From: a virus
Strand: one strand, 5' to 3'
Virus record (IMG/VR): IMGVR_UViG_3300029342_000002
Length of the DNA: 64,000 nucleotides
Position numbers and translations under genes: made by a program
Shown here: piece by piece, positions 2,911-43,422 of the stretch
Numbering within the stretch: position 1 is the stretch's first letter
Layout of the letters: the number at the start of each line of letters is the position of its first letter
The notes under the pieces: model-generated
Seen by the model: the letters and a program-made list of their open reading frames with translations, nothing else
Database searches by the model: none
Told to the model about the DNA's origin: nothing

Positions 2911-3056
2911 TGAAGTGCAGGGACTGTGTTATGTTTCGGGAGGAGGACGCTGACAGTCCTCCTGCCTGTTGGAGAGGCGAGAAGGAGGAATTTGCGAGAG
3001 GTGATGATGAGGCTTGCGACCGCTACCGACCGCTGAAAATCGCTTACAAAAGCTGA
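2910..3056 (+). CDS. small Cys-rich protein (48 aa)
   Basis: ATGA stop/start overlap with the upstream ORF. Translates as MKCRDCVMFREEDADSPPACWRGEKEEFARGDDEACDRYRPLKIAYKS. Below the ORF-track length cutoff. Confidence 0.3.
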   Translation: MKCRDCVMFREEDADSPPACWRGEKEEFARGDDEACDRYRPLKIAYKS

Positions 3057-3081
3057 AAATCGCTTACAAAAGCTTACAAAA
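3032..3081 (+). repeat. tandem direct repeat, 2.5 x 20 bp (GCTGAAAATCGCTTACAAAA)
   Basis: Read directly from the sequence. Lies about 50 bp upstream of the resolvase gene. Confidence 0.8.
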
Positions 3082-3131: not shown

Positions 3132-3587
3132 ATGGAGAAGAGATATATAGGGATTGACCCTGGGAAGCATGGTGGCATTGCAGTGCTTTCGGCAGACGGG
3201 TCGGTTGTAGAGGTGGCGAAGATACCGGGGACGGCTCGTGACTTGCTGGACTTTCTTCGTCGTTATAAGGACGATAGTGTCTGCGTGTTAGAGAGGGTCG
3301 GCGGTGTGCCGGGTAACGGCGCTCATGCGATGTTTAACTTCGGCAAGGGTTTCGGTCATCTTCAGATGGCGCTTCTGGCGTTGGAGATTCCTACTGAGGA
3401 CGTTACCCCTAACAAGTGGGAGAAGACGTTCCAGATGGGCAGCTCGGGGAAGTTCACGAAGAGAGAATGGAAGAATCTGCTGAAGGCTAAGGCTCAGCAG
3501 CTGTTTCCGAAGCTCGGCAGAAAGGTGACGCTTGACACGTGCGATGCGCTGCTGATAGCGGAGTATGGCAGGAGGTTAGGGCTGTGA
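3132..3587 (+). CDS. RuvC-like Holliday junction resolvase
   Basis: N-terminal YIGIDPGKHGGIAVL and C-terminal DTCDALLIAEYG match the catalytic acidic motifs of phage RuvC-like resolvases. Confidence 0.8.
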   Translation: MEKRYIGIDPGKHGGIAVLSADGSVVEVAKIPGTARDLLDFLRRYKDDSVCVLERVGGVPGNGAHAMFNFGKGFGHLQMALLALEIPTEDVTPNKWEKTFQMGSSGKFTKREWKNLLKAKAQQLFPKLGRKVTLDTCDALLIAEYGRRLGL

Positions 3588-3640
3588 GGGCTGCTTGGTG
3601 ATGATTAATTATTGTTAAATGTTATAAAAGGATTATTGTT

Positions 3641-4138
3641 ATGATTGATTTTGGTAAGAAGGTTTATTCGGGTAATTTCCTGATTATGAAGAAGGTTAAG
3701 ACTTTGAGTAAGAAGGAGATGGCTCGGCTCCGTGAAATGAACGGGACGAATAAGGAGATGTGTAAGAAGTTGAGCCGTTCGGGGCTTCCCTATATCCGCG
3801 TGGAGACTATCGGCGGCGACTGGGCTGTGGAGTTTATGCTTGGCACTACTGCCTATGACGCCATCGAGGCGCTTGACGTGAAGAAGGACTGGCGTGGAGA
3901 CTGGAGAGTGACCGGCGTTGACGGCGAGAACTCGAAGTTAGTGTTTACGAGCATGTATATGGACACCTCTGTGGTGGGTGACGAGCAGTATCAGGCAGAC
4001 AAGTGCAAGGCTCTGACGGAGTATCTGAAGCGTGCCGGAGAGAAAGCCGTGGGCAAGATGGAGGAAACTTACGGGCCTTTGGACGTACTTGGCAACAATG
4101 ACGAGCCGGGAAAGGAGGTCAGCGATGGCAAAGAGTAG
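3641..4138 (+). CDS. hypothetical protein
   Basis: 165-aa ORF within the replication block. Confidence 0.6.
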   Translation: MIDFGKKVYSGNFLIMKKVKTLSKKEMARLREMNGTNKEMCKKLSRSGLPYIRVETIGGDWAVEFMLGTTAYDAIEALDVKKDWRGDWRVTGVDGENSKLVFTSMYMDTSVVGDEQYQADKCKALTEYLKRAGEKAVGKMEETYGPLDVLGNNDEPGKEVSDGKE

Positions 4139-5681
4139 CGGCGAGTATATCGACATGCTGTTCTCGCAGCTTCTCACGATGAGCATGGACGACAAGTATG
4201 AGTTTCAGGCTCTTCGTGGCGACTGGGGCAATACGAACAGCGCTAAGTATAACGACATGTTGGCTCGTTTCTGCCGTAACATACGCGAGCTGGCAAAGAA
4301 CTGTCCTGTGAAGTATTTTGCCTTTGCGTTCTATATGTTCGATGGCAGGATATACGAGGTGGTGGACGTGAGCGTCATCGAACAGGCGTATCAGCTGCTT
4401 TTGGAGAAGCTCTGTGTGGCGCCGGTGATGAACCGTACGAGCCTTCGCAAGGAGATATTCATCGCGACGATAAAGAACTATAACACTCTTGTGCCTCAGT
4501 TTGACATCGTGGCGTTCAGAAACGGCGTTGTGGACTTCACCTTATCCCGCAAGACGAAGCCCGAGGCGATGCCGTTCTCTCCGCATTATCACGTGACATA
4601 CTATCATCCGTACGACTTTGACCCTAAGGCGAAGTGCCCGCTGTGGAACCGCTTCCTTATGGACGTGCTTCCAGACAAGGACTCGCGTGACATCCTCCAG
4701 ATGTTCCTCGGTCTTGGTCTTGTCCAGCGCGGTGACGCCTTTAACGTGTATGACGGCAAGGTGGTGAACAAGATAGAGCTGTGTCTGATGATGATCGGTT
4801 CGGGCGCTAACGGCAAGAGCGTCATCTTCGAGGTGATGTGTGCGCTGTTCGGTCCTGACCGCATATCGAAGATGGACTATGCCGACCTGACCGCCGACGG
4901 TGACGAGGGCATGCGCGGTCGCTATCCTATCCGTAACGCCATCTTCAACTGGTCGAGCGATTCTGACGTTCGCAAGTTCGGCAAGAAGAACACGGGTATG
5001 TTCAAGCGCCTTGTTAGCGGCGAGCCTATTACTTACAGAAAGTTAGGCGAGGACGTGTTTGAGTCGCGCTCTGTGCCTTACCTTATCTTCAGTCTTAACA
5101 GCGAGCCAGAGAGCAACGACACGTCTCTTGGTATGATACGCCGCTTGCAGTATGTGAACTTCGAGGTGACCGTGCCTAAGGAGAAGCAGGACCCTGAATT
5201 GGCTTCGAAGATTATCAACAAGGAGCTTTCCGGTGTATTCAACTGGCTGCTTGAGGGTGAGAGGAAGCTCAGAGAGCGTCACTTCAGATTCCCTGAGGCA
5301 GAGGGTTCGAAGAAGCATCGTATCATGGCTTATCTGAAGAGCCAGCCAGTGCTTTCCTGGCTGATGGCTTACGACATCAAACACCAGCGCCGTGTGTCGA
5401 ACGAGATTGGTCTGAGGATTCCTGTGTCGTTGCTCTATGAGAGCTTCGTGCAGTTCTGTAACGACAATAACCTCGACGACAATGATATTCCTTCGAGCAA
5501 CAAGTTCAGTAGGGTGTTGTGGGACGACTGCCACTTTGTGAAGAAGAAGACCCCGAAGTGTATTGCTTATGAGGTGTATGGCGTGACAGAGGCTGACCTT
5601 AGACAGCACTTCATCATATCCGAGATGACAGGAAAGGACTATGGTGAGGAAGTAGGGTTTATCAAGGAGGATGTGAAATGA
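4125..5681 (+). CDS. D5/P4-family primase-helicase (SF3 NTPase)
   Basis: Start taken at M32 (MAKSSGEY). Walker A motif IGSGANGKSV. Size and layout are typical of phage/plasmid primase P4-family C-terminal domain proteins. Confidence 0.8.
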   Translation: MAKSSGEYIDMLFSQLLTMSMDDKYEFQALRGDWGNTNSAKYNDMLARFCRNIRELAKNCPVKYFAFAFYMFDGRIYEVVDVSVIEQAYQLLLEKLCVAPVMNRTSLRKEIFIATIKNYNTLVPQFDIVAFRNGVVDFTLSRKTKPEAMPFSPHYHVTYYHPYDFDPKAKCPLWNRFLMDVLPDKDSRDILQMFLGLGLVQRGDAFNVYDGKVVNKIELCLMMIGSGANGKSVIFEVMCALFGPDRISKMDYADLTADGDEGMRGRYPIRNAIFNWSSDSDVRKFGKKNTGMFKRLVSGEPITYRKLGEDVFESRSVPYLIFSLNSEPESNDTSLGMIRRLQYVNFEVTVPKEKQDPELASKIINKELSGVFNWLLEGERKLRERHFRFPEAEGSKKHRIMAYLKSQPVLSWLMAYDIKHQRRVSNEIGLRIPVSLLYESFVQFCNDNNLDDNDIPSSNKFSRVLWDDCHFVKKKTPKCIAYEVYGVTEADLRQHFIISEMTGKDYGEEVGFIKEDVK

Positions 5682-5702: not shown

Positions 5703-6161
5703 ATGGAAGAGAAGGAGAAGATAGAGCAGCCGTCTTTGGATATTCAGAAGATTTTGGATGATGTGATGGCTGCTGAGAGCACAGATGTGGTGTTTCTCGG
5801 TAAGAAGAGGAAGATAGGGTGGCTTAGCAATGGCACGGTGCGACGGTTTACGCATGTGGTGATGAAGGAGAAGAACGAGGCGAAGCGCAACTGCAAGCTT
5901 TGTGCCTTGGTGCTGCTTAACAACATCTGGAAGATACGTCTGCGCTATGCGCTGCTTTGGCGCTGGCTGTACTATGTGAAGGATGTGAATGCGGTGGAGA
6001 TACTTCGTGTGGTGGATGTGGCGAAAAAAAAAATTCCATCGACTGCGTGCTCTCTGCTTACCATATTAGCGACCGGGATGACGGACGTGATGATGGCGAT
6101 GACAAAGGAGGAAGTAAAAGCTATCCAAGCCGAACAAGCTGGGGCGCAGCCTACTCGTTAG
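5703..6161 (+). CDS. hypothetical protein containing an A10 tract
   Basis: 152-aa ORF with a run of 10 A at 6024-6033. Confidence 0.6.
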   Translation: MEEKEKIEQPSLDIQKILDDVMAAESTDVVFLGKKRKIGWLSNGTVRRFTHVVMKEKNEAKRNCKLCALVLLNNIWKIRLRYALLWRWLYYVKDVNAVEILRVVDVAKKKIPSTACSLLTILATGMTDVMMAMTKEEVKAIQAEQAGAQPTR

Positions 6162-6436
6162 CCGAGAAGTTCGGCTTCCTCTTTGAGCGTAAGTTCGGTA
6201 TAAGGGCTTACGACTACTGGTGGGGCTATACGGCGGCTCAGATTGGGCTGATGGTGGCCGACCAGCCTCTTGTGGTGTACCCGAAGGGTGAAGCCAAGAA
6301 CGCCGACGGCAGCAAGAAGCATACGGCGGAAGAGATGGACAAGCTTTGGGATGACTGGCAGAGGAAGAAGCAGAAAGAGGGTAGCTTAGTGGGAAAGAAG
6401 GTGAACCTCGGTGAGTATTTGAAGGGAGGTTTGTGA
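6031..6436 (+). CDS. -1 frame ORF downstream of the A10 tract (possible frameshift extension of 5703..6161)
   Basis: The frame of ORF 5957..6436 stays open from the A-tract. It has a protein-like C-terminal part (SLAEKFGFLFERKFGIRAYDYWWGY..) but no start codon between about 6100 and 6249. Confidence 0.3.
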
Positions 6437-6468
6437 TATTTATTGTTAACTTTTATTAAGGATGTAAT

Positions 6469-6705
6469 ATGATTGAGAAGTTTGTTGAGATTGTGGAGGA
6501 CAAGGCGGCTCTTGAACTTGGGCTGCGTGTGATAATGGAGGTGGCAGAGACTAAGAATCTGCCGCCTGTGGGGGTACTTCCCACGTTTAATGACGAGCTT
6601 ATTGCTGATATGTTTAACAAGACGCTTGAGCTTGTGGCGGGGAAGAAGTTTCCTGAGGACGTGGACAACTCGGGAGGAATCGGGTTCTTTGCAGAGAAGG
6701 ACTAA
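6469..6705 (+). CDS. hypothetical protein
   Basis: 78-aa ORF, the last gene of the + strand block. Confidence 0.55.
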   Translation: MIEKFVEIVEDKAALELGLRVIMEVAETKNLPPVGVLPTFNDELIADMFNKTLELVAGKKFPEDVDNSGGIGFFAEKD

Positions 6706-6718
6706 GGGCAAAAGAAAA

Positions 6719-6749
6719 GCGGCTACCATCACAGGTAGTCGCTTTTTTG
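6719..6749 (+). terminator. rho-independent terminator
   Basis: GCGGCTACC-ATCACA-GGTAGTCGC stem (one G:T pair) followed by TTTTTT. Confidence 0.6.
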
Positions 6750-6852
6750 TCAAAACAACATGTAAATAATCACTTATACGAAACATCCATTGCAAAAATA
6801 CGATATTATTTTATTATTACCTTGAGTGGCAGCTTGCATTAACACTGGTTAA

Positions 6853-7393: not shown

Positions 7394-8143
7394 TTAATCT
7401 TCGTTGTAAATGAATTTTATGAAGCACACGCAGTTGGTGTGGAACGGGGGGAAGGGGTCGCCGAAGTGGTGGACGTAGGCGGTTTCATCATCACAAACTG
7501 CGCAGGGATATGAACTGCCTCTATGGACTGTGAAGCCTATGGCTCCTGACTCCTTTCCGTACTGCTGTTCGGCTATTCCCCATGCTACGGCTACCATCTG
7601 GCGGGCGTTCCTTGTTATGTTCTGGAAGGCTGAATGGAAGATGCCTTTGCCGTAGGACGGTGTGGCTATGCTGATGTCCTTTGTCCTTGCCTTCGTGATG
7701 ACAGAGGCGAGGTAGGGATTCTTGTAGCCGGTGCGGACGGATGAGAGGAGCTGCGTGTCGGTGTAGCCCATCATTATGCCTGCCTTGGACATTCTTACGA
7801 TGTCTTCGGCGAAGTTACGGAGGTATATGGCAGTTCGCTGTGCCGATGTCTTGCCGTAATATTCCGACGTTAGGAAGCTCTCTACTCCTTCTGAGGAGAC
7901 GTTGAGGTGTGTGGCGGCGGCTACGGCGTAGTCATGGATCTGGCGTTCGATGCCATCCGCGAGCCTTGAGGCGATGGTCTGGGCTTCGCGGAGAAGCGCC
8001 TGCTCGTTGGAGAGGACGTTTCCGCGACGGTACTTTCCTGCCGCCTGCGTGATTTGCTCGGCGGCAGAGAAGAGGAGCTTTGTGATGCGTGACTCGCAGG
8101 CGAGCTGCGCCTTGGAGCGAAGTGTGGCGTATTCTGCTGACAT
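7394..8143 (-). CDS. head morphogenesis protein, SPP1 gp7 / Mu F-like
   Basis: C-terminal CAVCDDET...FPPFHTNCVCF matches the conserved HPNCRC-type end of this family. Lies next to the portal gene. Confidence 0.8.
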   Translation of the reverse strand: MSAEYATLRSKAQLACESRITKLLFSAAEQITQAAGKYRRGNVLSNEQALLREAQTIASRLADGIERQIHDYAVAAATHLNVSSEGVESFLTSEYYGKTSAQRTAIYLRNFAEDIVRMSKAGIMMGYTDTQLLSSVRTGYKNPYLASVITKARTKDISIATPSYGKGIFHSAFQNITRNARQMVAVAWGIAEQQYGKESGAIGFTVHRGSSYPCAVCDDETAYVHHFGDPFPPFHTNCVCFIKFIYNED

Positions 8144-8160
8144 AGTGTGGAATTTTTGTG

Positions 8161-8240
8161 ATAGGCAGCTCTAGCGGCTATAGGCGGGGCTAGAGGCTGG
8201 CGCCGTTATTGAGCCTTGCTAAGCCTTACTGAGCCTCCTT
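8161..8240 (+). repeat. dispersed intergenic repeat, copy A (full length)
   Basis: Sequence ATAGGCAGCTCTAGCGGCTATAGGCGGGGCTAGAGGCTGGCGCCGTTATTGAGCCTTGCTAAGCCTTACTGAGCC. Homologous copies lie at 15282, 16355, 17149, 43158 and 51901. Confidence 0.85.
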
Positions 8241-9953
8241 TTAGTGTGTGCGATTATAATCATCCCAGTTTTTTCTGCCGGGGTAATTATTGTTCTCGTC
8301 CCAGTCTTTTCCTGACCGGTTGGGGCGTCCTGCCTTTCTTCCTCCTCCCGTGTTGATGTCGGAGCCGCTTTGCTGTTTGTTGATACGGGCGGTGGCTTCC
8401 TGCTGCTCTATGGCGTTCTCGGTTTCGTTGTCGGCACGCTGCATATCCATGAGGAGGTCTTGCTGGTCTTCCTCCTTCTGCTCTCTCATAATGCGCTCGA
8501 ACTCTCCGTTCTTCGGGAAGTCTGGGCAGCGTTCCGATGCTGTCTGCTTGGAGAGGAAGTGGTTTTGTACGGCAGTGGCGAGGTTTGTGATCAGCTCCGT
8601 CTTGTTGGCGTGGGTGTACGGTGATATCCATGCGTTGATGGGAAGACCTGTCATTGTGGCGACATAATTCTCCTCCGTACCGATGCCGAACTTGCAGATG
8701 GTGACGAGCTTGTCGAGGAACGGCTGTAACTTCTGTGCGTCGTTCATGGCAATCTCAAGAGCTGGCGAATAGAGAAGCTTTATGGCTACGCCTGGGAGGT
8801 CTCCAGACTTGAGTTCAGGCGGCTTGACGGTGAACGACAGCTCGTAGATGAGGTCGTATGACTTGTTGAGCTGTGTGGCGAATGCGTTGGATGCATCCGT
8901 TCCGTTGAGGAATCCCGCCTCGCTGTCCGTGTCGTTCATCGCAATGGACTTTACGGCGCCGGTCACCTCATCCCCTACGATGTTGACGTCCTCTCCGTCT
9001 CCCTTGACATAGAAGATGGGGAATGCGTATGCCTTGTTGTTCTCGCAGAGATAAGAGAAGGCTTCCTCGTAGTCCTCGATGTTGTGCTGCACCATGAACC
9101 AACATGGTCCGTCCTCGTTACGCGCGTAAGCCACTGGCACGAACGGGAATCTGTGCGGCTTCTCCTCTACGAGATTATATCCGTCGATGCCGAAGAACTT
9201 GGCTACATACGTGATGACCTTCTGTGTCTTGCCTTGCGCTACGCTTCGCTTGAAGCGATATAACTTGGTCTTATCCCATACCTCGACCCATTCCGTAATC
9301 TCGTTGCCCTCGTCGTCAAAGTCGCTGAAACGTCTTGCGAAGCACAGGAGGTCTCCGGTGAGTGAATCGAACTGCGGATAGAGTCGGTCGCCGCGGTCGT
9401 ATGATAGCGTTCGTGTTCCGAATTTTCCGTTCTCGTCGAAATAGCCCACGATGGCACAGTCAGCCACCTTCATGTATGCGCTGATGGCCTCGAAGAAACG
9501 TATTTCCATATCGTGCATGAGCCATCCCTTCTTGAATACATTGAGATATTTCTGAGCCTTGTCAGCCTCCTCCCTGCTGTCATCTCCGCTGTCAGCAAGC
9601 TCGAACTGCACGTCGTTGCCCGTAAGATGGAGCACGTGCTTCGTATGGATGAGCTGCTGGAAGGCGAACGCCGTTCTTGTGATGGGCTGCTGATACCACT
9701 TGCCAGTGTCGGGGTCCTGCTTCCATATATCGGGATATTCCTTGGTGTCGAAGATGCGGTGTCCTGTAGGATAGAACTCGCGCAGGAAGTCAGCCTGCGT
9801 CTTTATGTTGCGATAGACAGAGTCTTCCGGCATATTAGGCGTTGCGTCTTCTCTGATGTTGGTTGTCCACGCTCCGTGCTTCTTGTATCCCTCCGGCGTA
9901 ATCTCGAAGAACGGCTTCTTGACAAGAATCTCTCTTACCTTTAAAATCTCCAT
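8241..9953 (-). CDS. portal protein
   Basis: 570 aa, immediately downstream of and overlapping the large terminase. Acidic/basic C-terminal tail. Size and synteny are typical of portals. Confidence 0.8.
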   Translation of the reverse strand: MEILKVREILVKKPFFEITPEGYKKHGAWTTNIREDATPNMPEDSVYRNIKTQADFLREFYPTGHRIFDTKEYPDIWKQDPDTGKWYQQPITRTAFAFQQLIHTKHVLHLTGNDVQFELADSGDDSREEADKAQKYLNVFKKGWLMHDMEIRFFEAISAYMKVADCAIVGYFDENGKFGTRTLSYDRGDRLYPQFDSLTGDLLCFARRFSDFDDEGNEITEWVEVWDKTKLYRFKRSVAQGKTQKVITYVAKFFGIDGYNLVEEKPHRFPFVPVAYARNEDGPCWFMVQHNIEDYEEAFSYLCENNKAYAFPIFYVKGDGEDVNIVGDEVTGAVKSIAMNDTDSEAGFLNGTDASNAFATQLNKSYDLIYELSFTVKPPELKSGDLPGVAIKLLYSPALEIAMNDAQKLQPFLDKLVTICKFGIGTEENYVATMTGLPINAWISPYTHANKTELITNLATAVQNHFLSKQTASERCPDFPKNGEFERIMREQKEEDQQDLLMDMQRADNETENAIEQQEATARINKQQSGSDINTGGGRKAGRPNRSGKDWDENNNYPGRKNWDDYNRTH

Positions 9954-11572
9954 AATCCTTTTACCTTATTGTGTTTTTTCTTTGTTAAGCTGAAAATCAT
10001 CCTGTAGAACCAAGACTCGAAGAAGTCGGGCGAGTGTCCTACGTATCTCTTTGCAAGCTTCTTCGGCAGTAGCTTGAATCCCCGGTCGCTGCTGTTCTCG
10101 TCGCGTCTGAGCATCTTTCGCTCCTTCTGTAGGATCTGGCGCAGCGTCCATTTCTCGAATCCGTCTCCCGAATACTTGCGCTCAAGCAGCGAGGCGTCTA
10201 TGGATATGCGCCGTTCCTTTACCATCTTGTAGAAGAGCCACGCGCACTGCGACTTGAGGTCCTTGTAGAGGTACTTTATGCCGTCTTCCTCCTTTCGTGA
10301 CTGTGCCAATGGCGCAGCCTGATTGTTGAAGGGTACGGCATCCTTGAAGAATCCCTTGAAGTACTGTCCGATGCCCTGCATATCGTACGTGAAATTGGAC
10401 TCCTCCACTCCCCATTCGCGCAGCTTCGCCTCGACGGTGGAGACGAGTGTCTTGGAATCGAGTCGCAATACGATAAGGTCCTTGCAGTGCCATCCTTCCC
10501 ATAGCCACATCACGAAATTGTCACCTCCCGTGAAAGCGATGTCGGCAGAAGCTCGTCTGATGCCGTCGTCGGTCTGTTCGGCGTTGTCGAAGATGGCTTC
10601 GAGGTCGTCCATCTTTATCATGTCGTCGCCCGCTGCCTTCCAGTTCCAGTTGGCTTCGAGGTCGCGCATGCGCTGTTCCTCGTCCTGCTGCGCAAGGTTG
10701 GCGAGATAAGACACGTCGGTGGAAATGAGCTTGATGTTTTCGGACACGTCGGCACGTATGAAGGTGGCTGACTTGATGAACATCTCGAGCTTGGAATAGC
10801 CAAGTTCTTCGTAGCTGGGTTTCCAGAGCTTGTCGATGATGCCACGGCACTGCTCGTAGACCTCCTCGCGTGTGTCTCCCCAGTAGATAGAGTCGGGTGT
10901 GTCGCCGTCCATGAAGCAGTAGCGTATGACTCCGTCACGCTCCGGTATGATGTAGCCGTCTTCGTCCACCCACCAGTCGATGAACTTGCGTACCCATGAC
11001 TCGGGGTCGGGGTTACAGGTTATCCAGAAGCGGTTTCGGATTTGTGATGCGTTACGGTTGGTCTTTATGAGGAACTTGAATTTCTTGAACGGTATCTGTG
11101 TACCCTCATCGACACAGATATAGGCGTACTGACGACCTCGGAAGCGCTCCTCGAAATCCTTTAGTGCTCCTTCGAAATACGAGAACTTAAGCCATCCTCC
11201 GCTGGCAAAGTTCCATGTCATGTCGTTCTGGGACTTGTTGTATGTGCCGAACTGGGAGAAGAGCTTGTAGGAATCGGAGATTAGGGACTGAAGGTCGTCT
11301 TTCTCCTTTCGTAGTATCGTGGCATGGAAGTCTGGGTTCTTGATGTCCTTCAGGACTTCCATGAGAGAACTAAAACTCTTACTACCGCCGCGGGAGCCTC
11401 CGACGATTTTGATGTCGGCGTCGATGGCGAGCATACGTTCCTGTCCTCCCCGTTGGTCTATGATTTTGAGCCGGTCGGGATGGCGTTTGTCTGCGTCTCG
11501 GAGAGACTGTATGTACTCCTGGGTGTAGACAGGAGAGCCGTCGCGTAGGCGGTATGGTGAGAGTTTTGTCAT
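9941..11572 (-). CDS. terminase large subunit
   Basis: 543 aa. Walker A-like VGGSRGGSKS, Walker B-like YICVDEGTQ, and a C-terminal nuclease-type region. Confidence 0.85.
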   Translation of the reverse strand: MTKLSPYRLRDGSPVYTQEYIQSLRDADKRHPDRLKIIDQRGGQERMLAIDADIKIVGGSRGGSKSFSSLMEVLKDIKNPDFHATILRKEKDDLQSLISDSYKLFSQFGTYNKSQNDMTWNFASGGWLKFSYFEGALKDFEERFRGRQYAYICVDEGTQIPFKKFKFLIKTNRNASQIRNRFWITCNPDPESWVRKFIDWWVDEDGYIIPERDGVIRYCFMDGDTPDSIYWGDTREEVYEQCRGIIDKLWKPSYEELGYSKLEMFIKSATFIRADVSENIKLISTDVSYLANLAQQDEEQRMRDLEANWNWKAAGDDMIKMDDLEAIFDNAEQTDDGIRRASADIAFTGGDNFVMWLWEGWHCKDLIVLRLDSKTLVSTVEAKLREWGVEESNFTYDMQGIGQYFKGFFKDAVPFNNQAAPLAQSRKEEDGIKYLYKDLKSQCAWLFYKMVKERRISIDASLLERKYSGDGFEKWTLRQILQKERKMLRRDENSSDRGFKLLPKKLAKRYVGHSPDFFESWFYRMIFSLTKKKHNKVKGLWRF

Positions 11573-11620
11573 GTTATCCTGTTGATAATGGGGTGTTTAG
11601 GGGCTTTGTTTAATATTTTA

Positions 11621-11706
11621 TGTATGTTTATGCAAAAATAATGGATTTTTCTTGGATAGATGTATATTTATGCGTATTTTTGCGATATAAAATGTATATT
11701 TATGCA
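11621..11706 (+). promoter_or_regulatory. three direct copies of TGTAT(A/G)TTTATGC(A/G) in the divergent TerL/scaffold intergenic region
   Basis: Copies at 11621, 11661 and 11693. The same motif occurs at 24872 and, inverted, at 24850. Confidence 0.6.
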
Positions 11707-11749
11707 ATTAGTAAGGTGAAGGACTCACTTTACATAAACACAAATCAGA

Positions 11750-14891: not shown

Positions 14892-15266
14892 ATGGAGACA
14901 GGAATCATCAACAACCCACGCTATCCTCACAGGGTCACGATAGTGAGGCTTGTGCCTGGGAAGGGCGACGAGGACAATCCGTTCGCTGACGACGACGCTC
15001 CCGTGAACGACGAGGAAGTGGTGCTCTACGACGGTAAAGGCAGGAGCTTTACGGACACAACGACGACCGGTGACAAGAACGTGGACGAGAACAAGAGAAA
15101 GGCTTCGATACCAATGAGGTTCGACGACTGGAAGGCGGGTGGCTTTCCTCTTGACGGCGACACGATAAGAGTGAGGGTCGGGAACCATACCGAGGAAGGC
15201 ATGGTGAAGGACTGCGAGGGAGATAATAACAGGACCGTGGTGTACTGGAGTCTGAGGAGGGTGTGA
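14892..15266 (+). CDS. hypothetical head-tail joining region protein
   Basis: 124-aa ORF. Assigned by synteny only. Confidence 0.5.
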   Translation: METGIINNPRYPHRVTIVRLVPGKGDEDNPFADDDAPVNDEEVVLYDGKGRSFTDTTTTGDKNVDENKRKASIPMRFDDWKAGGFPLDGDTIRVRVGNHTEEGMVKDCEGDNNRTVVYWSLRRV

Positions 15267-15281
15267 AAGGGCAGTCTTGTG

Positions 15282-15330
15282 ATAGGCGGCTCTAGCGGGG
15301 CTAGCAGGACTAGGGGCTGGCGCCGTTTGT
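15282..15330 (+). repeat. dispersed intergenic repeat, copy B
   Basis: Sequence ATAGGCGGCTCTAGCGGGGCTAGCAGGACTAGGGGCTGGCGCCGTTTGTAGG. Confidence 0.8.
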
Positions 15331-15355: not shown

Positions 15356-15940
15356 ATGGCTGAATTGAAGTTTGGTTATGGGCGAGTTGTCCACCAGAAT
15401 TATTCCGACCAGTTGTTTAGGCGTTTGTTCCGAGATGTCAAGCAGTATACCGTGGAGACTATGCTTGAGAATATGGAAAAGATGGCTTACGAGATACTTA
15501 GGACGGCTTATGCCGAGAAGGAATTTATCTCTGTTACGGGAAACCTTATAAACTCGTTCGCTGTTGGTATCTACTACAAGGGAGAGCTGAAAAGAGTGGT
15601 TGGCGCTGCGGATATGGGCATAGACCCTCCAGTCAGAGTGTCGCTCAGTCCCGGAGAAAAACTGCCTGTGACGCGATGGTGGGACGCTGTGGAGCCATAC
15701 GAGAGTAGCAAGGGCAAGATCGGGGCGTTCAAAGGAGAAATCGGTCCGGGACACGTTGACGGAAGAAAGGCGGCTATCAGGAAGCTACAGTCCACGAGAC
15801 CTTGGAAGAGAGATACCTACGCCTTGATAGTTGTTGCCCCGATGGTGTATGCGGATTATGTGCAGTACAAACAAGGGCATGACGTACTGACCGCTGTAAA
15901 AGAAGTGATGCCTCAGATAGAAAAAATTTGTTACGTATGA
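15356..15940 (+). CDS. hypothetical head-tail / tail completion protein
   Basis: 194-aa ORF. Assigned by synteny only. Confidence 0.55.
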   Translation: MAELKFGYGRVVHQNYSDQLFRRLFRDVKQYTVETMLENMEKMAYEILRTAYAEKEFISVTGNLINSFAVGIYYKGELKRVVGAADMGIDPPVRVSLSPGEKLPVTRWWDAVEPYESSKGKIGAFKGEIGPGHVDGRKAAIRKLQSTRPWKRDTYALIVVAPMVYADYVQYKQGHDVLTAVKEVMPQIEKICYV

Positions 15941-16344
15941 TAAGCATAAAGACGCTGTACTATGATGTCGGTAATGCCGTTAAGGGTGTTTGCGACAGGG
16001 TTTATGCCCATGACCGTCCTAAGGCTGTGAGTGACAGGCCAGACAGCTATATCGTGGTGGTATTTCCTTCTGTGATTCTTAACAATGAGATGAACAGTGA
16101 GGGGACGTTCAATGACTATACCACTACGGCTCAGATAGAGATATATGTGAGGAATAAGGTGTCGGCAAAGAATCCAGGGGCGTTTGACGTGTCTGCGGTG
16201 TCCGAGAAGGTCAGTGCGGTAATGAAAAAGTTTCCGATCTCGACGGACAACATCATCGTAACGAAACCGCGCGTTACCCTGCAAACGGACGACGGTGACG
16301 GTTTTTCGGTGACGATAGTGCAGGGACAGCTGAGAACGAGGTGA
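15937..16344 (+). CDS. hypothetical tail completion/terminator-region protein
   Basis: ATG at 15937 forms an ATGA overlap with the upstream stop. About 135 aa. Confidence 0.55.
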   Translation: MISIKTLYYDVGNAVKGVCDRVYAHDRPKAVSDRPDSYIVVVFPSVILNNEMNSEGTFNDYTTTAQIEIYVRNKVSAKNPGAFDVSAVSEKVSAVMKKFPISTDNIIVTKPRVTLQTDDGDGFSVTIVQGQLRTR

Positions 16345-16354
16345 GAAGCTTATG

Positions 16355-16420
16355 ATAGGCAGCTCTAGCGGCTATAGCGGGGCTAGAGGCTGGCGCCATC
16401 ACTGAACCTTGCTGGGCTGA
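16355..16420 (+). repeat. dispersed intergenic repeat, copy C
   Basis: Sequence ATAGGCAGCTCTAGCGGCTATAGCGGGGCTAGAGGCTGGCGCCATCACTGAACCTTGCTGGGCTG. Nearly identical to copy A over 43 bp. Confidence 0.85.
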
Positions 16421-16477: not shown

Positions 16478-17071
16478 ATGGCAATGAAGAAAATTCTTGA
16501 GCTTAAAGACCGATTTGTAGGTCCTAAGTCTATCTTGTTCTCAAAGAGTCTGATAGACCTGTCGAAGGGGACAATCGAGTTTACCCCGGAGTTGGAGCTT
16601 CCCGTGGAGGTGGACTCACTGAAGGCAACGATGGAAGACCCGACTGTCAATCACTATAAGGTAATCGGTCTTGGCGGCGATTGGGCGACCACCGCAGAGC
16701 TTGGTGACTTTAACGTAGAGTTGGTTGTTCCTTCCAAAGCCAAGGACTTGCTCTCTGCAATGTTCGGCGAGGACGCTGTCAGCGAAATCACCAAGTTTAC
16801 CATCAAGGGTTCTGGCGATGCAGCTCTTGACGTTACAACGGGTTATACCGGTACTGCATTGGAGGCAAAGAAGTTTAAGATGACCGGTACTATCTGTATC
16901 GTAGACGAGACAAAGGAGAACCTGATGGTCATCACAAACCTCTCGCTCTATGCAACTATGCAGTGGGATGAGACAGGAACCAAGCCTGTTGCATTCAAGT
17001 TCAGTGGTTCTGTTGAGGGCGCTGGTTTGAAGAGCGTTGCTTGGCTTACAAAGGCACCTGCGGCAGCGTAG
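16478..17071 (+). CDS. major tail protein (by position)
   Basis: 197-aa ORF immediately upstream of the tape measure gene and followed by a strong terminator-type hairpin. Confidence 0.6.
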   Translation: MAMKKILELKDRFVGPKSILFSKSLIDLSKGTIEFTPELELPVEVDSLKATMEDPTVNHYKVIGLGGDWATTAELGDFNVELVVPSKAKDLLSAMFGEDAVSEITKFTIKGSGDAALDVTTGYTGTALEAKKFKMTGTICIVDETKENLMVITNLSLYATMQWDETGTKPVAFKFSGSVEGAGLKSVAWLTKAPAAA

Positions 17072-17095
17072 GAAGGGCTAAGGACAGGAATGGGG

Positions 17096-17143
17096 GCGAG
17101 GAGCAGTGGGCTGAAAGTGGCTGCTGCTCCTCGCTTTTTTTTT
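17096..17143 (+). terminator. rho-independent terminator/attenuator after the major tail gene
   Basis: Perfect 11-bp stem GCGAGGAGCAG...CTGCTCCTCGC followed by T9. Confidence 0.75.
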
Positions 17144-17148
17144 GGGGG

Positions 17149-17163
17149 GGCTGGCGCCGTTAT
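17149..17163 (+). repeat. dispersed intergenic repeat, partial copy D
   Basis: GGCTGGCGCCGTTAT(GAGGAGAG), sharing the 3' module of copies A and F. Confidence 0.6.
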
Positions 17164-20200: not shown

Positions 20201-23200
20201 GCGCATTGCAGGCAAGATAACACAGCAGCAATATCTGACCTATTCGGCTCTTCTGAAGCAGCAGACGGGCATGAACACATTCGGCATGAGAACCAGACGT
20301 CTGCTTGTCCAGTTGAGGATGATGATGGCCGGCATGTTGGCTAATCCTATGGGCGCGATGAGGAACATGTGGGGCAGTTTTACGACCTCCGCATTGGCGT
20401 CATTCCGAGTGATAGGAATGGGTGCAAAGGCATTGGGTGCTTCCCTGTGGTCCGCGATAGGCGGTCTGCCGGGGCTTATCATATCCGGCGTGACATTTGG
20501 CATAAGCTACCTTATATCGAAGTCGCAGGATCTGAAGCAGGACATGCAGCAGACTATGGACGAAATGAAGGACCGCATAAAGCAGATTGACGACTTTATG
20601 CGCGACAACAACGTGGGCAAGATAGTGCGCGGCGACAACGAGAAGGAAATAGACAATGCCATAGAATCTTACAAGGACAAAATCAGAGAGATAGCCCCTG
20701 AAAGCGCCAACGCCTTTGAAATGAAGGCGTCGGAGATAGAAAGCCACAAGGAGCGTCTGAAATACCTTGAGGAGCAGTTGGATCTTCTGAAAGAAGCCAA
20801 TAAAGTGGCCCAGGAGAAGTCGGAGAATACGGACCTCTATGAGGATCTTCGCGATAAGACCGAGAGTGCCGTAAAAGCAGCCGAAACACTCGTAAAGCGT
20901 TCATCCATCTTTGGAAAGGGAGGCGTGGACGAGGCAGAAATGGGTCTTTACGAAGATGCAGAGAAAGAGTTTGACAAGTTTATCGGTCAGCTTGCAGCAA
21001 GGTACAAGAAAGAATTTCCGAATATCGTCAACAGTACGCAGGAACAACAGGCGATGCAGACGATGCTGAAGAACTTTCTTGCGCTGAAGGGCGCGAGCGA
21101 GGAAGCCACCATGCAGATACGTTCGGCTCTGAACCGTGCGCTTGGCCTGGAGGACAAAGACATGGAACAAGCCTTCGCAAGCAAACTCATGAACATGGTG
21201 GACTCTGCCTTCCCCGAGATAGCGGACAGGATTCGCGGACACAAGGAACTGGACGCGGAAAGCAAGCGTAAAGTGGAGAACCTTATGCGAGGTGCCGTCA
21301 GCGAGCTTAGCATCGCCTATCCGAAATGGGAGACGGAGCTGCAACGCCTCCTTGCCAACTCGTCATTTGAAGCGAAGATCCTGCTTGTGTATGATACGGG
21401 AATGATAGACAACTTCGATCCGTTCACTGGACGCATATATAATAATGTGCTCGGCTCAAATATCACACAATGGAAGGAGAATGCCGAGAAGTTCCAAGAG
21501 CTTAAACCTTTGCTGAAGGGAGTAAACGATATGTATACCGCCCGCAATAACGCAAAGACCGAACTGGAGAAGCGTTATAACATATGGAAAGCAGAGGAGG
21601 ACGCCAAAAAGAAGGGCAAGGGTGACGAGGCGACAAGACTGGCAGTAAAGAAGAAATACGAAGACCTCAGGAAAGCCGCCTACTTAGGACTTGGTTATGA
21701 ATATGTCCCAGAGGACAAGAAGAGCAACAGAGTGCCTAAGGGTAAGGGTGACAAGGAAGATAAGGTGCTGAAGGCTTGGGAGGAGCGTCTTAATGCGTTT
21801 AAGTCTGCCCGTCAGATGTATCAGAAGTATAAGGGGCTTCCCAACTGGGGAGCCAAGAAGGCTGACGATATGGTCAGAGGGCTGTTTCCTGAGGTGGGCG
21901 ACCTTAGCTTCGACAAGTATCTGGAGAGTCTGGAGAAGTTAGAGAAGGCGCTGAAGCCTACCACCACGGAGAGAAAGAAAGCCATTACCGCGCTGCATAG
22001 GGAGAGAAGCGAATGGAAATACTCCGAGATGCTGAAACCCGAGGCAGACCGACTGGCTGCTGACTTTGCGGAGATACTGGAAAGAGGCATCCGCCAGGCA
22101 GACCTCCATAAGGCGCTGATGGAGAAGACAGGAGATGAGAACTTCGCCTCACTTGCCTTCAGAGACGGCATGATGTGGGACGACCAGACCCGCGGTATGG
22201 CCCAGATGTTCGAGGAAATGACCGGCAGGAAGATAGATGGTCTGCTGGACGCTACCGACGCCACAGCCAAGAAGGCATTGGAGGACAACACCGACGCCTA
22301 TAACCTGTGGAAGAAGATAACCGACCTCGTCAGAAACAACTATACGGGTTACCTTGAGAAAGCCGCTGACGCCATCAAGGAGACGGCGACTTGGGAGGAG
22401 AAGCTGATTGCCGTGGACGCGAAGTGGGACGAGCGCATAAAGCAGGCTGACAGACGCGGTGACACCTCCACCGCCGAGCGTTTCCGTCAGATGCGTGACA
22501 AGGAGAAAGGACAGGTAATGGACGCTCAGTTCAAGCAGAGCCAGGACTACCTGAACTTCTTCGGTGCGATAACCGAGATGGGCGAAGTGAAGGCGCGTGA
22601 AGTGGCGGCAGAGATACGTCAGTATCTTAACACAGCCCTGAGAGACGGCAGCATCGACGCAAGAGAGTATGCAAAGCAGATACAGCAGATAGACGAGCAG
22701 CTGCGCAAACTGAGCGAGCGCAGAAAAGGCTTCTTCAACGGCGGCATCGTCGGCATAGCCGAGCGTAAGACGGAAGAAGGTAACGCGAAAATCTCAATGG
22801 GCGCGACCAGCGTGGCGGCTGGCGAGGAGAAGATCCGCGAGGGCAGGATAAAGGGTGACATCGCCCTTGTGGCGGAAGGACTGAAGCTCAAGGTGACCGG
22901 TGAGGACCTTATCAGAACCGGCAAGAAGCTGGTAGAAGAGGGTATGACGCTGAAGAAGCGCTTCGAGAACATCGGCAGCGCCCTCGGCGAGATAGCCAAT
23001 ATCGCTAACGGTATCAACGACGCCTTCAACCAAGTCAAGGACATGGCAGACGCCCTCGGCATAGACACCGAGAGTGACGGATGGCAGGACGCACAGGCAG
23101 CGATGTCGTCGCTGACCTCTATCACGGGCGGCATCTCGAAAACCTTCAAAGCCGTGAAGAGCGGTGACATCGGCGGCGCAGTGAGCGGTGTGGCAAGCAT

Positions 23201-24834: not shown

Positions 24835-24846
24835 AAAAATATCGGA

Positions 24847-24888
24847 TATTGCATAAATATTCACATCATAGTGTATATTTATGCAATA
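24847..24888 (+). promoter_or_regulatory. 15-bp inverted repeat ATATTGCATAAATAT / ATATTTATGCAATAT carrying the TATTTATGCA motif
   Basis: Read directly from the sequence. Spacer is about 14 bp. Lies 35 bp upstream of the ATG at 24922. Confidence 0.6.
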
Positions 24889-24921
24889 TTTTTACTAATT
24901 TTGGGACTAAAATAGAGCAGT

Positions 24922-33870: not shown

Positions 33871-33982
33871 AAAGGGATTTGGCAATGAACGATGAGCCTC
33901 AATGAGCCTTTCTAAGCCTATCTGTGCCGCTGCTTAATGGGCGCAAATAAGAAACAATAACTGACAAATAACAAATAAGAAG

Positions 33983-39922: not shown

Positions 39923-40258
39923 TTATATCGCGTTTGTGATTTGTAAATCGTGCGTCTCGCCTATCACGCCGACAACCGGTATTCCGCAAGCGTCAGCCAC
40001 ACGGCGTTCTGTTTCACAGCCTTTGGAACAACGCCATCGGTTCGGTACGACAATGCCGTCGCAGCCGAGGAGCAGACGTAAGTCCTCTTTCATGTGCTCC
40101 GTGTGCGGCGCAGAGTCGGGCAGCGGTTTAGCCATGGGATTGACTGCCTTGTAGCCGAGGATTGTCAGTTCATTCTCGATCCGAGCGAAAAACTTGTGTC
40201 GCTCGTTGAGGTTGTAGCCAGTAATCGGCGATGATATGTATATTTTCTTTTTGCTCAT
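39923..40258 (-). CDS. DUF4406 / nucleoside 2-deoxyribosyltransferase-like protein
   Basis: The pattern KIYISSPITGYN...AVNP...LLLGCDGIVVPNRW.CSKGCETE...A...GIPV fits the DUF4406/NDT-like fold signature. From memory; needs an HMM search. Confidence 0.6.
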   Translation of the reverse strand: MSKKKIYISSPITGYNLNERHKFFARIENELTILGYKAVNPMAKPLPDSAPHTEHMKEDLRLLLGCDGIVVPNRWRCSKGCETERRVADACGIPVVGVIGETHDLQITNAI

Positions 40259-40272
40259 TTTTGTTTATCAGA

Positions 40273-41283
40273 TTAAAATATCACTTCTTTGTAGCTTGAT
40301 GTTGGCTTCTTGCCGGACAGGATTGCATTGCCACAAGTAATCAGTCCGTTGTCCTCGTCATACGACGGAACGAACACTATTACATCAAATCCGTTTGCCT
40401 TCAAATCTTCTTCCACTTTCTTGTACGGCACAAACGAGTCGTAACCTCCGCTTGTCTGAATATGGTTGGCTTCGCAGCTGTTCGTTCGGTGGAGCGGTGT
40501 AATCTTACACATGAACTTGCTTGGGTCGAACATGGACGCAAGTACCTTGCCGTCAATGATAGAGTCGTCAGCAAGTGCGAAGTTAAGAGTGTACTTGCGA
40601 CCGCGCGGAGTTTCGAGTGTGTCAGCAAGCTCTGCAATATCTTTCAATGGTAGAGCATTGCCCGAGAACAGGTATTCTCGCTGCGCGTCGTCGGTAGAGT
40701 TTATAGAGAACTGCAAGCCTGCGTTTCCGTTGTAGTCGGTATTCTTAACTCTAACCCATTTGTGGATAAAATCATATAAGTTACAATTATGCTTCGGGAG
40801 CATTGTGCTTACTACAGGATGCACAAGTGAATTTCCGATGTAGGGAACAATATCTACGCGCAAGAAGAAGCGCGCGTGCTCGATTACAGCCTCGTTCCAT
40901 GTCGGCTCGCCCATGCGTGCATAGTGTACATTAAGGCGTTTGGTGTGATTAACCTCTGGGTGCATACTTAATGCCGTTGTTATCTCGTTGCGCAGGTCGT
41001 TCAGTGTCACGTTGCGTCCCGGTCCGACTTTCGGCACGTCACAGAACTTGCAGTTCATCGAACAGCCGTACTGGGTAGAGATTGTTATCACCCATTTTTC
41101 GGTTAGGGGCATTGGCGTTCCGTTCGGCACACCATTCAGCTCTCTTGTTATGCCGAGGAAGTCGGCTTTGATGTTTGCATCTTTCCCGTAGTCGGCTACT
41201 GTCAGAAACTCCAACACGCCTTTGTTTCCTTTTGCGGTGTAGATTTCACCTGTAGGAACTTTGATTTCTTTGAGTATTTGCAT
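40273..41283 (-). CDS. radical SAM enzyme, RlmN/Cfr-like
   Basis: STQYGCSMNCKFCDVPKVGPGRNV (CxxxCxxC), ARMGEPTWN and C-terminal LITCGNA align with RlmN SSQVGCxxxCxFC..G..RNL, MGMGEP and AACGQL. Confidence 0.75.
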   Translation of the reverse strand: MQILKEIKVPTGEIYTAKGNKGVLEFLTVADYGKDANIKADFLGITRELNGVPNGTPMPLTEKWVITISTQYGCSMNCKFCDVPKVGPGRNVTLNDLRNEITTALSMHPEVNHTKRLNVHYARMGEPTWNEAVIEHARFFLRVDIVPYIGNSLVHPVVSTMLPKHNCNLYDFIHKWVRVKNTDYNGNAGLQFSINSTDDAQREYLFSGNALPLKDIAELADTLETPRGRKYTLNFALADDSIIDGKVLASMFDPSKFMCKITPLHRTNSCEANHIQTSGGYDSFVPYKKVEEDLKANGFDVIVFVPSYDEDNGLITCGNAILSGKKPTSSYKEVIF

Positions 41284-42784: not shown

Positions 42785-43126
42785 TTATTTTGCTTCTAAT
42801 AGTCTTTTCTCGCAAATCACACCGAGGCCTTCAATGAGGTCCAGACATGAGTCACATTCCAAGCAGAATGTAGAGCATACATGAGGGCTGTCTTGATAGT
42901 AAGGACAGCCCGTCGCCTTTTTCATATAAAGTTTTTTGTCCTTTACAAAGGCGTAGAATGCTTTTACAAGCCTCGTTGGCCTCTTTTCTTCGTTCAACTG
43001 ACGTACCACATCGTTGTAGTCGTCCATGAGCTGATGCACACGATGCGCTAACACAATGTTCTCTGCCTTCAGGTTGGCGATGACATAGGCAAGCGCCTCC
43101 ATGCTTTTGTTTTCTTCTGTTTCCAT
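42785..43126 (-). CDS. hypothetical Cys-rich protein
   Basis: 113-aa ORF. Confidence 0.55.
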   Translation of the reverse strand: METEENKSMEALAYVIANLKAENIVLAHRVHQLMDDYNDVVRQLNEEKRPTRLVKAFYAFVKDKKLYMKKATGCPYYQDSPHVCSTFCLECDSCLDLIEGLGVICEKRLLEAK

Positions 43127-43157
43127 TGTTTTATATGTTTTTATAGATGCTCTTGGT

Positions 43158-43215
43158 ATAGGCAGCTCTAACGGGGCTATCTATTATAGAGGCTGGCGCC
43201 TTACTGGGGCTTTCT
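43158..43215 (+). repeat. dispersed intergenic repeat, copy E
   Basis: Sequence ATAGGCAGCTCTAACGGGGCTATCTATTATAGAGGCTGGCGCCTTACTGGGGC. Same + orientation although the flanking genes are on the - strand. Confidence 0.8.
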
Positions 43216-43221
43216 GTTGTT

Positions 43222-43422
43222 TCAGTTTCGGAAGAGCTTGATTCTCGTTACCTTGTTCTTGGCTCTTGGGTTCTGGCGTCGCCATTCTTCGGCGAGCTGA
43301 CGTTCGAGCTGTTCGTGTCGTATGAAGCGGTCTCCGATGGGTATCTGGAAGACAGCCTGTAGGACGCTTCCATCTGAGAAATGGATGAGTCCGTGTCTGG
43401 TGATGGTGTGAGTGTATATCAT
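43222..43422 (-). CDS. hypothetical protein
   Basis: Start taken at M17 (MIYTHTIT), directly after the upstream stop. Confidence 0.5.
   Translation of the reverse strand: MIYTHTITRHGLIHFSDGSVLQAVFQIPIGDRFIRHEQLERQLAEEWRRQNPRAKNKVTRIKLFRN

Follow-up and report, generated by a model that had tools for sequence, protein, structure and literature searches.

A mosaic repeat of uniform polarity in the intergenic spacers of a clade of temperate Bacteroidales phages

What is the GC-rich repeat that recurs, always on the same strand, between the genes of the viral sequence IMGVR_UViG_3300029342_000002, and does it act as a signal or simply spread and decay with the genome that carries it? The 64,000-nt stretch analysed here (hereafter the window) is part of the genome of a temperate Bacteroidales phage from a gut phage clade. 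A preliminary description of the repeat, whose reference copy (copy A) adjoins the portal gene, had proposed a phage-specific regulatory or processing element with a hairpin core, or else a miniature mobile element. Our results reveal a modular array, not a hairpin, that is dispensable and private to one narrow phage clade. We tentatively interpret it, with a probability of about 0.4, as a mosaic repeat that recombination both propagates and erodes, similar to the bacterial interspersed mosaic elements (BIMEs), with CTAG tetranucleotides that would be ancestral and under purge.

Copies and modular anatomy

The core of copy A, the 44-mer ATAGGCAGCTCTAGCGGCTATAGGCGGGGCTAGAGGCTGGCGCC, occurs exactly at 8161–8204 on the plus strand and in none of 100 shuffles. 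Three diverged full cores follow at 15282–15324 (copy B), 16355–16397 (copy C) and 43158–43200 (copy D), all on the plus strand. An nhmmer profile of the variants finds these four full copies in the window and no others (8161, 15282, 16355 and 43158; E values of 4e-13 to 1e-9; all plus), and a repeat finder groups the 44-mer with 15276–15324, 16349–16397 and 43152–43200 in one family of direct repeats (D2). The two methods agree with the recurrence of the core at 15282, 16355 and 43158 that had first been noticed.

Alignments resolve the core into two tandem 19-nt units (ATAGGC-N4-CTAG-N-GGCT) followed by GGCGCC, the palindrome that was described as its end and that closes it in all four full copies. 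Upstream lies a leader with the consensus GGCTGCTTGTGAT; downstream come GTTAY and between one and four words of 10 nt (CTGAGCCTTN). Longer alleles have the leader once more after the words, so the modules form a cyclic order of which different sites hold different stretches. Arrays carry one to three 19-nt units across sites, and these units are gained or lost whole (e.g. a one-unit form at site B of relative L134). TA steps stand at core columns 2, 12, 21 and 31, spaced 9–10 nt apart, and Tandem Repeats Finder returns periods of 9–10 nt within copies (period 10 at 8212–8236 in copy A; period 9 at 15292–15313 in copy B). RRGCCT pairs 10 nt apart number four (8211, 8221, 33894 and 33904; all plus) against 0.15 expected. 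The core is GC-rich, as had been claimed (0.53–0.70 versus 0.49 for the window). With two 19-nt units per core, the element contains tandem direct repeats of the ∼17–22 bp class in helical phase, and its leader, core, 3′ module and words are combined in varying ways at at least 15 intergenic sites, which is a mosaic of the type formed by BIMEs and their repetitive extragenic palindromic (REP) units.

Copy A (8147–8238, plus) lies between the minus-strand genes of the portal (8241–9953) and of a 249-aa open reading frame (ORF; 7394–8143), and consists of a leader at ∼8150–8160 (ending in TTTTTGTGAT), the core, GTTAT and three 10-nt words (8210–8237). Copy B (15269–15329, plus) has its leader (15269–15281) just after a TGA stop codon (15264–15266) and lies upstream of a plus-strand gene (15356–15940); its core, which precedes GTTTG, contains three CTAGs at 9-nt intervals. 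The leader of copy C (16345–16420, plus) occupies 16345–16354, immediately after a TGA stop codon (16342–16344), and the next plus-strand gene is at 16478–17071; the core is 43/44 identical to that of copy A, a single 1-nt deletion apart, and is followed by two degenerate words. Copy D (43146–43216, plus), between the minus-strand genes 42785–43126 and 43222–43422, consists of a leader, a core in which every CTAG has been lost (to CTAA, CTAT and ATAG) and TTACTGGGGCTTTCTG.

Core-less derivatives occur in the intergenic spacers at 17149, 33891, 51903 and 3588, again all on the plus strand. Site E (17146–17163, plus), upstream of the gene for a 2367-aa protein, is a solo 3′ module GGGGGCTGGCGCCGTTAT; it lies directly 3′ of an intrinsic-terminator-like hairpin with a T-run (17094–17145). 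Site F (51903–51963, plus), in a minus-strand gene context, is a core-less composite with the order words AAGCCTTTCT GGACCTTATT GAGCCTCTTT, leader ATGAGGCTGCTTG, 3′ module CGGGCTGACGCC and GTTAT. The 3′ module GGCTGGCGCC is exact at 17149–17158 and has a one-mismatch form GGCTGACGCCGTTAT at 51949–51963; the preliminary description had placed it at 17149, which is exact, and at 51901, where the module is in fact at 51949 and the stretch 51903–51935 holds the word module. Its observation that the (T/A)GAGCCT/AAGCCT words recur around 33893 and 51901 is borne out by the word modules of sites G and F. Site G (33891–33940, plus) comprises the words GAGCCTCAAT GAGCCTTTCT AAGCCTATCT and the leader-like GTGCCGCTGCTTAATGG, with no core. 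The solo leader GGGCTGCTTGGTGAT (3588–3602, plus) is what is left at a site where one relative lineage (L205, L384) has a full element. Site s3019 (3017–3081, plus) carries a 3′-module variant GACCGCTACCGACCGC, then 2.2 copies of the 20-nt tandem repeat GCTGAAAATCGCTTACAAAA and an AT-rich stretch; in relatives, a CTAG core stands immediately 5′ of this variant.

Site occupancy and turnover

The flanks of every copy were mapped onto the window to define sites. This gave at least 13 of them (s3019, s3589, s5675, s6408, A, B, C, E, the end of the second giant ORF at ∼31.2 kb, G, D, F and s64000), and two further word sites lie past the window end, for a total of at least 15. Their content changes among close relatives. 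Site A has four alleles in genomes that are 94–99% identical around it, and sites A and B hold five different variants each (at site B, relatives contain V2, V11, V16, V20, V25 or core-less forms). At site C the core is deleted in most relatives, leaving ATAGGC plus TGCTTGCCGGCTGG. Site G has a full core in L346 and L390, site F shows the module order of site B in L122, L127 and L133, and copy D is present in every clade member whose region was retrieved (V4, V14, V30). Site E is a full element in L126, and the window allele there looks like a deletion between GGCTGG microhomologies. Indel breakpoints were located at A, B, C, E, s3019 and s3589 in 16 genomes. In most ‘empty’ alleles a remnant persists, be it the final word, a leader alone or ATAGGC with a stub; these alleles are therefore deletions, often between GGCTGG-type microhomologies. 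These comparisons show that the repeat family is dispensable: its sites are filled, shortened or near-empty in genomes that are otherwise 94–99% identical.

Variants also recur and recombine between sites. One lineage has the identical 44-nt variant V5 at s5675 and two others have it at site A, and variants are mosaics of shared halves (e.g. V16 combines the 5′ half of V11 with the 3′ half of V3). We infer that (i) the arrays may have spread from site to site, always directly oriented, through copying or gene conversion; (ii) unequal exchange or slippage between short internal repeats may have reshaped them; and (iii) microhomology deletions would account for the solo leaders, the solo 3′ modules and the word arrays. 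The lambda-exonuclease-type nuclease and the RuvC-like resolvase of the phage could drive such recombination.

A cassette model, in which elements travel with neighbouring genes, was rejected: elements are gained and lost independently of the genes beside them. The gene after copy B (15361–15956) has two alleles that are ∼27% identical at the protein level among genomes otherwise 97–99% identical; this replacement is bordered by the element and a ribosome-binding site on the left and by the start of the next gene on the right, so that an element stands on one side only. The 1–20 kb region compared yielded no DNA-binding or mobilising gene specific to the clade; the ORFs there that occur largely or only in the clade (15–566 and 571–1668) match a structural protein of virions and a PHROG family without assigned function.

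Distribution

Relatives identified through their portal form three groups, and the element is present only in the closest of them (L119–L134, portal 93–100% identical). In 64 sister loci (portal 66–74% identical) we found neither the element nor an analogous GC-rich repeat; only the AT-rich TGCATAAATATACA motif is shared. The repeat is absent from sister clades that share the gene order. A 17-base pattern of the 5′ half retrieves 16 viral contigs, all from the clade of the element, and the nine metagenome matches are all the phage clade itself. The strict full-length pattern has no match in 185,579 species genomes; a loose pattern gives 81 single matches there, in coding DNA of unrelated taxa and none with a 3′ module, as expected by chance. 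The phage collection INPHARED and the plasmid collection PLSDB contain no match. The repeat family is private to one narrow phage clade. Its description as phage-specific stands across the viral, metagenome and genome collections, with nothing in known phages, plasmids or Rfam, and no matching motif family was found, in line with the first impression that it is not a described motif.

Is the repeat a transposon or a REP-type element?

Presence/absence polymorphism, intergenic placement and a single polarity would all suit a classical non-autonomous transposon or a host REP-type element, such as a miniature inverted-repeat transposable element (MITE), a REP unit mobilised by a REP-associated tyrosine transposase (RAYT), an IS200/IS605 derivative or an integron attC-like site; single-strand transposons in particular have a replication-related polarity bias. 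We nevertheless regard this explanation as highly improbable. The ends of copies A–D contain no terminal inverted repeats of at least 8 nt, the sole match being the internal CTATAG palindrome. Filled and empty alleles at six sites reveal no target-site duplication: at s5675 the element replaces TAAGAT without duplication, and elsewhere the flanking ‘repeat’ is the element's own leader. There is no stable palindrome, and the species genomes and metagenomes hold no copies outside the phage. Neither a mobilising enzyme (transposase, RAYT or IntI-type) nor a nickase was found among the ∼75 window proteins scanned, and no Y1/HUH match was obtained among these proteins with Pfam and/or PHROGs, a scan that did not cover some small ORFs and the genome beyond the window.

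Specific candidates were rejected on the same grounds. The element is not a MITE, being without terminal inverted repeats and target-site duplication, nor an REP unit or BIME proper, with no conserved palindrome, no chromosomal copies and no RAYT. An integron attC site is rejected because the 5′ side has no RYYYAAC (inverse core), the GTTAT or GTTTG after GGCGCC misfits GTTRRRY and no palindrome is supported. Of the earlier suggestion of a miniature mobile element, what survives is that the repeat behaves as one copied between sites and lost; a classical transposon, which would bring terminal inverted repeats and target-site duplications, it is not.

Enterobacterial BIMEs are mosaics of REP units, short, GC-rich, strictly extragenic, variable among strains and dispensable, with roles that are partly understood. 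The phage repeat resembles them as a short, GC-rich, extragenic mosaic of variable modules that differs between relatives and can be dispensed with. REP units themselves are imperfect palindromes of alternating orientation, present on chromosomes in hundreds of copies and linked to RAYT transposases. The phage repeat, by contrast, has no conserved palindrome, one polarity and a distribution limited to one phage clade, and no RAYT was found.

Does the repeat act through RNA?

The options named in the preliminary description included an RNA hairpin, a processing element and a translation insulator. In copy A, CAGCTCTAGC can indeed pair with GCTAGAG(G)CTG, and the location in untranslated spacers and the stops in all three frames of copy A would fit a structured RNA, whether a hairpin, a terminator, a processing site or a translation insulator. 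The proposed hairpin can thus be drawn for copy A, but it is not conserved. Single-sequence folds of both strands have z scores of −0.27 to −1.95, no improvement on shuffled sequence, and the minimum-energy structure differs from copy to copy. Across 15 distinct variants, 79% of cells of the proposed helix pair, which is no improvement on column shuffles either (38 of 500 reach this value); four pairs are broken in 4–10 of the 15 variants, and only one pair shows a two-sided change. Covariation is absent. RNAalifold does not predict it and returns only trivial GGC/GCC pairing within GGCTGGCGCC. An Rfam scan of the window gave no match at the gathering threshold; at E ≤ 5, only the terminator hairpin (17086–17144) had matches, weak ones of the generic-hairpin type.

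Nor do the copies behave as signals of known transcriptional type. Intrinsic termination was rejected: no copy has a T-run after the core and the terminator scan does not flag them, the terminator-like hairpin upstream of site E being a separate feature. The orientation would make the element antisense in six minus-strand contexts. The claim of stops in all three frames holds for copy A only; copies B, C and D cover two plus frames, which speaks against a translation insulator. Promoters of the sigma-54, Bacteroidetes and sigma-70 types were also considered and set aside. TGGCGC-N5-TTGA resembles a sigma-54 −24 box in copy A only, and the −12 GC is missing elsewhere; the pattern TTTG...TAnnTTTG matches only 47105 and 60065; and a generic scan does not flag the copies. 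In short, the element does not act via a conserved RNA or DNA hairpin, the structured RNA reading is largely refuted, and we give it very little credence.

Phasing of sub-motifs and protein binding

The periodicity of the core raises the possibility of a phased protein-binding array (operator-, iteron- or centromere-like), in which a phage or host protein would bind cooperatively to TAG...GGC sub-motifs, placed every 9–10 bp on one helix face within a 19-bp super-unit, with an effect on expression, replication or DNA organisation at the neighbouring genes. The regular TA centres and the gain or loss of 19-nt units as wholes are consistent with this, and so are sub-sites that form mini-palindromes (GCTAGC, CTATAG and GGCGCC), sites B, D and E that are never fully empty, and several small helix-turn-helix proteins encoded by the phage (36414–36767, 57920–58546 and 60288–60806). 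In relatives, several copies cluster round the primase-helicase gene and the iteron-like 20-nt repeat at 3031–3081.

However, the element is dispensable at most sites and missing from sister clades with the same gene order, its orientation is independent of that of flanking genes, and the outer bases of CTAG and the spacers vary freely. Column variability reveals no surplus of invariant columns (23 versus 22 expected under a Poisson model; dispersion index 1.11), although with 24 related variants this test has low power. No cognate protein was identified, and the region compared contains no clade-specific gene of this kind. Taken together, we consider a protein-binding array unlikely, if worth keeping in mind.

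Two known classes of repeat bear on this question. Iterons are direct repeats of 19–22 bp to which initiators such as lambda O and P1 RepA bind; they are essential and cluster at an origin or control locus. The phage arrays are like them in being ∼19-nt tandem direct repeats, two helical turns long and in one orientation, some of which flank the primase-helicase gene in relatives; they differ in being scattered genome-wide and dispensable. Mycobacteriophage stoperators and start-associated sequences are intergenic regulatory repeats. The intergenic repeats of halovirus HF2 carry promoters (PMC8707807). The phage repeat shares with HF2 repeats and stoperators its virus specificity and its occurrence in short spacers at many places in the genome; whereas those are gene-oriented and kept across related viruses, it ignores gene direction, is missing from sister clades and is often deleted. 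A transcription-locked repeat of the stoperator or promoter type was rejected, as A, D, F and three further sites keep plus polarity among minus-strand genes.

Polarity and strand asymmetry

Every copy at the at least 15 sites has the plus polarity of the window, including six sites among minus-strand genes. Copies A and D lie between minus-strand genes and B, C and E between plus-strand genes, so that the claim of one orientation whatever the strand of the flanking genes, and of a position between genes, holds for A–E. GC skew is positive on the plus strand almost throughout the window, even in regions where all genes are minus (+0.12 to +0.19 at 52–58 kb), and reaches +0.148 in an adjoining 11-kb prophage segment with minus-strand genes only (L394:9700–21185). 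It follows that the elements always put their G-rich strand on the G-rich strand of the genome. AT skew, unlike GC skew, tracks gene direction, and GC skew is much weaker in the sister clades (0.04 and 0.07). This pattern suggests unidirectional replication or another strand-specific mutational process; the G-rich strand may be the lagging-strand template.

Such uniformity would be expected of a strand-specific DNA signal for replication, packaging or virion DNA structure, for example a nickase site or a site on the lagging-strand template that is single-stranded during replication. The sites of the clade on one strand whatever the gene direction, the coincidence of this strand with the G-rich strand genome-wide and the retention of GGCTGGCGCC, the most constant part, even in the deletion derivatives E and F all point that way. 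Known phage nick sites are also confined to one strand despite convergent transcription (PMC3517423): those of T5, tf and phiKMV-like phages are dispersed motifs on one strand whatever the direction of transcription, with an enigmatic function (PMC3517423; PMC10644984) and the consensus 5′-TACT/RTGMC-3′ in tf and R/GCGCRGG in T5 (PMC3517423).

The phage repeat resembles these nick sites in lying on one strand irrespective of gene direction, in six minus-gene contexts among at least 15 sites. The nick consensus, on the other hand, is short (7–19 nt), fairly invariant and syntenic, its position kept among relatives, and may lie within genes. The elements here are modular arrays of 25–100 nt, intergenic only, highly polymorphic and often lost. 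Four to seven copies per genome are too few for Okazaki priming, and the proteins scanned include no nickase or HUH enzyme. We therefore think such a signal distinctly improbable.

A different strand asymmetry is shown by CTGATG, which occurs 37 times on the plus strand and once in reverse (60608), evenly spread over plus- and minus-gene regions (2907, 4785 ... 63445). Relatives within the clade have strand counts of 184:2; in two sister clades the counts are 155:23 and 262:283. The Type III enzyme PstII recognises CTGATG (PMC6868433), and phage T7 evades Type III restriction through a single-orientation site bias (PMC3874151). A Type III-style orientation constraint on the element was rejected, with no fully polarised word inside it; the most skewed element words outside copies are GGACT (92:28), GCTGG (67:21), GGCTGG (22:4) and GCTGGCG (9:1).

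CTAG content

CTAG is the most avoided tetranucleotide in the window (9 observed versus 88 expected), and seven of the nine are in copies A, B and C (P ∼5e-18). In a 21.7-kb stretch of clade relatives, 0–6 CTAGs are observed against ∼27 expected, nearly all within repeat copies (L129 and L130 have one outside the element). The host flank (L394:1–9700) is CTAG-poor as well (1 versus 9.9 expected), and among related phages CTAG depletion is lineage-specific. Full variants contain zero to three CTAGs. Seven of the 24 have none, and in many variants lost CTAGs are replaced by CTATAG, CTAA or CTGG; copy D has no CTAG, yet occurs in every clade genome retrieved for its region. It appears that the element had CTAGs ancestrally and is losing them to the pressure that has purged CTAG from the rest of the phage and from its host. 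Other short palindromes are strongly avoided too (observed/expected: GGCC 51/222, GATC 52/217, GAGCTC 0/15, ATCGAT 0/9 and CTGCAG 2/19).

Alternatively, the arrays might constitute a new strand-polar DNA signal, in which a strand-specific activity reads clusters of the only CTAG sites in a genome purged of them, spaced by one helical turn along the G-rich strand. Candidate readers would be a nickase, a methylation-dependent binder (cf. the GATC clusters in P1 pac and oriC) or a phage reverse-transcriptase system. If true, this would account for the copy-paste behaviour as well as for the confinement of all copies to one strand; we rate it as quite a slim chance.

The phage genome and its gene context

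The window encodes a large terminase (9941–11572, minus), the portal (8241–9953, minus), a D5-type primase-helicase (4098–5681), a RuvC-like resolvase (3132–3587), a YqaJ/lambda-exonuclease (55335–56015), a CI-like helix-turn-helix protein and two tyrosine recombinases. Bacteroides LoVEphage has a portal 44% identical to the one encoded here. Integrated copies of the phage adjoin a tRNA gene, beyond which lie the host genes TatD, Fkp-like and TonB, and this places the attachment site at ∼60.8–61.1 kb of the window. The tRNA gene abutting the attachment region (L394:9630–10000 in integrated copies) has a long variable arm, and the two recombinases beside the tRNA attachment site look like ordinary integrases. 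The attachment region (60807–61104 and 62655–62810) contains tandem repeats (TTTTGGTGGACTT ×3 and GTTTTGAGGCG ×2.5) upstream of the integrase gene (61105–62289), and a 34-nt, AT-rich inverted repeat that is 91% complementary lies between the two recombinase genes (62728–62807).

The 20-nt tandem repeat at 3031–3081 looks like an iteron-type replication origin: it has two to four copies in relatives, is followed by an AT-rich stretch and lies upstream of the resolvase and primase-helicase genes. The divergent terminase/structural spacer (11620–11720) contains three copies of the AT-rich motif TGTATATTTATGCA, which is also present, as a palindrome, upstream of gene 24922 (24845–24900). TGTATATTTATGCA is kept in distant relatives (L192:8205–8334 and 20270–20450) and is probably the real promoter or operator signal of this phage family. 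The minus-strand ORF 6238–6786 (182 aa) is probably spurious; the plus-strand ORFs 5957–6436 and 6469–6705 that overlap it are kept in sister clades and it is not.

A radical-SAM enzyme (336 aa, with a weak RlmN/Cfr-like match) is encoded next to a DUF4406/nucleoside 2-deoxyribosyltransferase-like protein at 39923–41283, and the pair may form a nucleic-acid modification module. The radical-SAM gene is 93–98% identical in phages whose portal is only ∼70% identical, which indicates mosaic exchange. The minus-strand ORF 49839–50552 contains a 12-nt tandem repeat (GCCATAGCCATC ×16 at 50316–50505) that encodes an N-terminal (G-D/Y/S) dipeptide-repeat region (GYGDGYGDGSGDG...).

The phage genome extends past position 64000, where a fragment of an N6-adenine methyltransferase gene is found (L393:20054–20734). 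About 4.5 kb past the window end lies the gene of a 421-aa reverse transcriptase (L393:15567–16832), whose best matches are group II intron reverse transcriptases with sub-threshold scores. Its non-coding flank (L393:14894–15566) is a structured stretch of 670 nt with five copies of a 26–37-nt repeat (GGCACRTGNCTGTAGGTG..TGATGT), and it also contains the word-plus-leader module of the repeat element. A search for a template repeat/variable repeat-type pair, in which the non-coding flanks of the reverse-transcriptase gene were compared with the window and with the flank retrieved (L393), found none. The connection between the reverse transcriptase and the repeat is a lead, not evidence.

Interpretation and implications

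Several observations weigh against a mosaic repeat shaped by recombination alone: (i) a clean gain is seen at one site only (s5675), so that copy-paste spread rests mainly on identical variants at different sites; (ii) no mobilising enzyme or insertion signature was identified; (iii) sites B, D and E hold some module in every genome examined, which function could explain; (iv) the 9–10 bp phasing of TA and GGC sub-motifs has the look of a protein-binding array, and the test that found 23 invariant columns against 22 expected is low-powered, being based on 24 related variants; and (v) all of the at least 15 sites, six of them among minus-strand genes, share one polarity (two-sided P ∼1e-4; 2.4e-4 for the 13 mapped sites), which recombination does not obviously explain and which hints at a strand-specific process or constraint. 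Because recombination and decay alone do not account for the absolute polarity, we retain the protein-binding array and the strand-specific signal as less probable rivals of the mosaic repeat that we favour.

A dispersed mosaic intergenic repeat is a known kind of element; what is unusual here is its strand-locked polarity and the concentration of CTAG in a CTAG-purged genome. If it is only a recombining, decaying repeat, it offers a clean natural example of how mosaic repeats arise, homogenise and erode in a phage population and of how indel hot spots form through them at gene boundaries, as well as a useful strain-level marker for this gut phage clade. If instead the polarity or the CTAG concentration is functional, the repeat would reveal a strand-specific DNA process, such as nicking, epigenetic marking or replication-coupled copying, that is undescribed for Bacteroidales phages.

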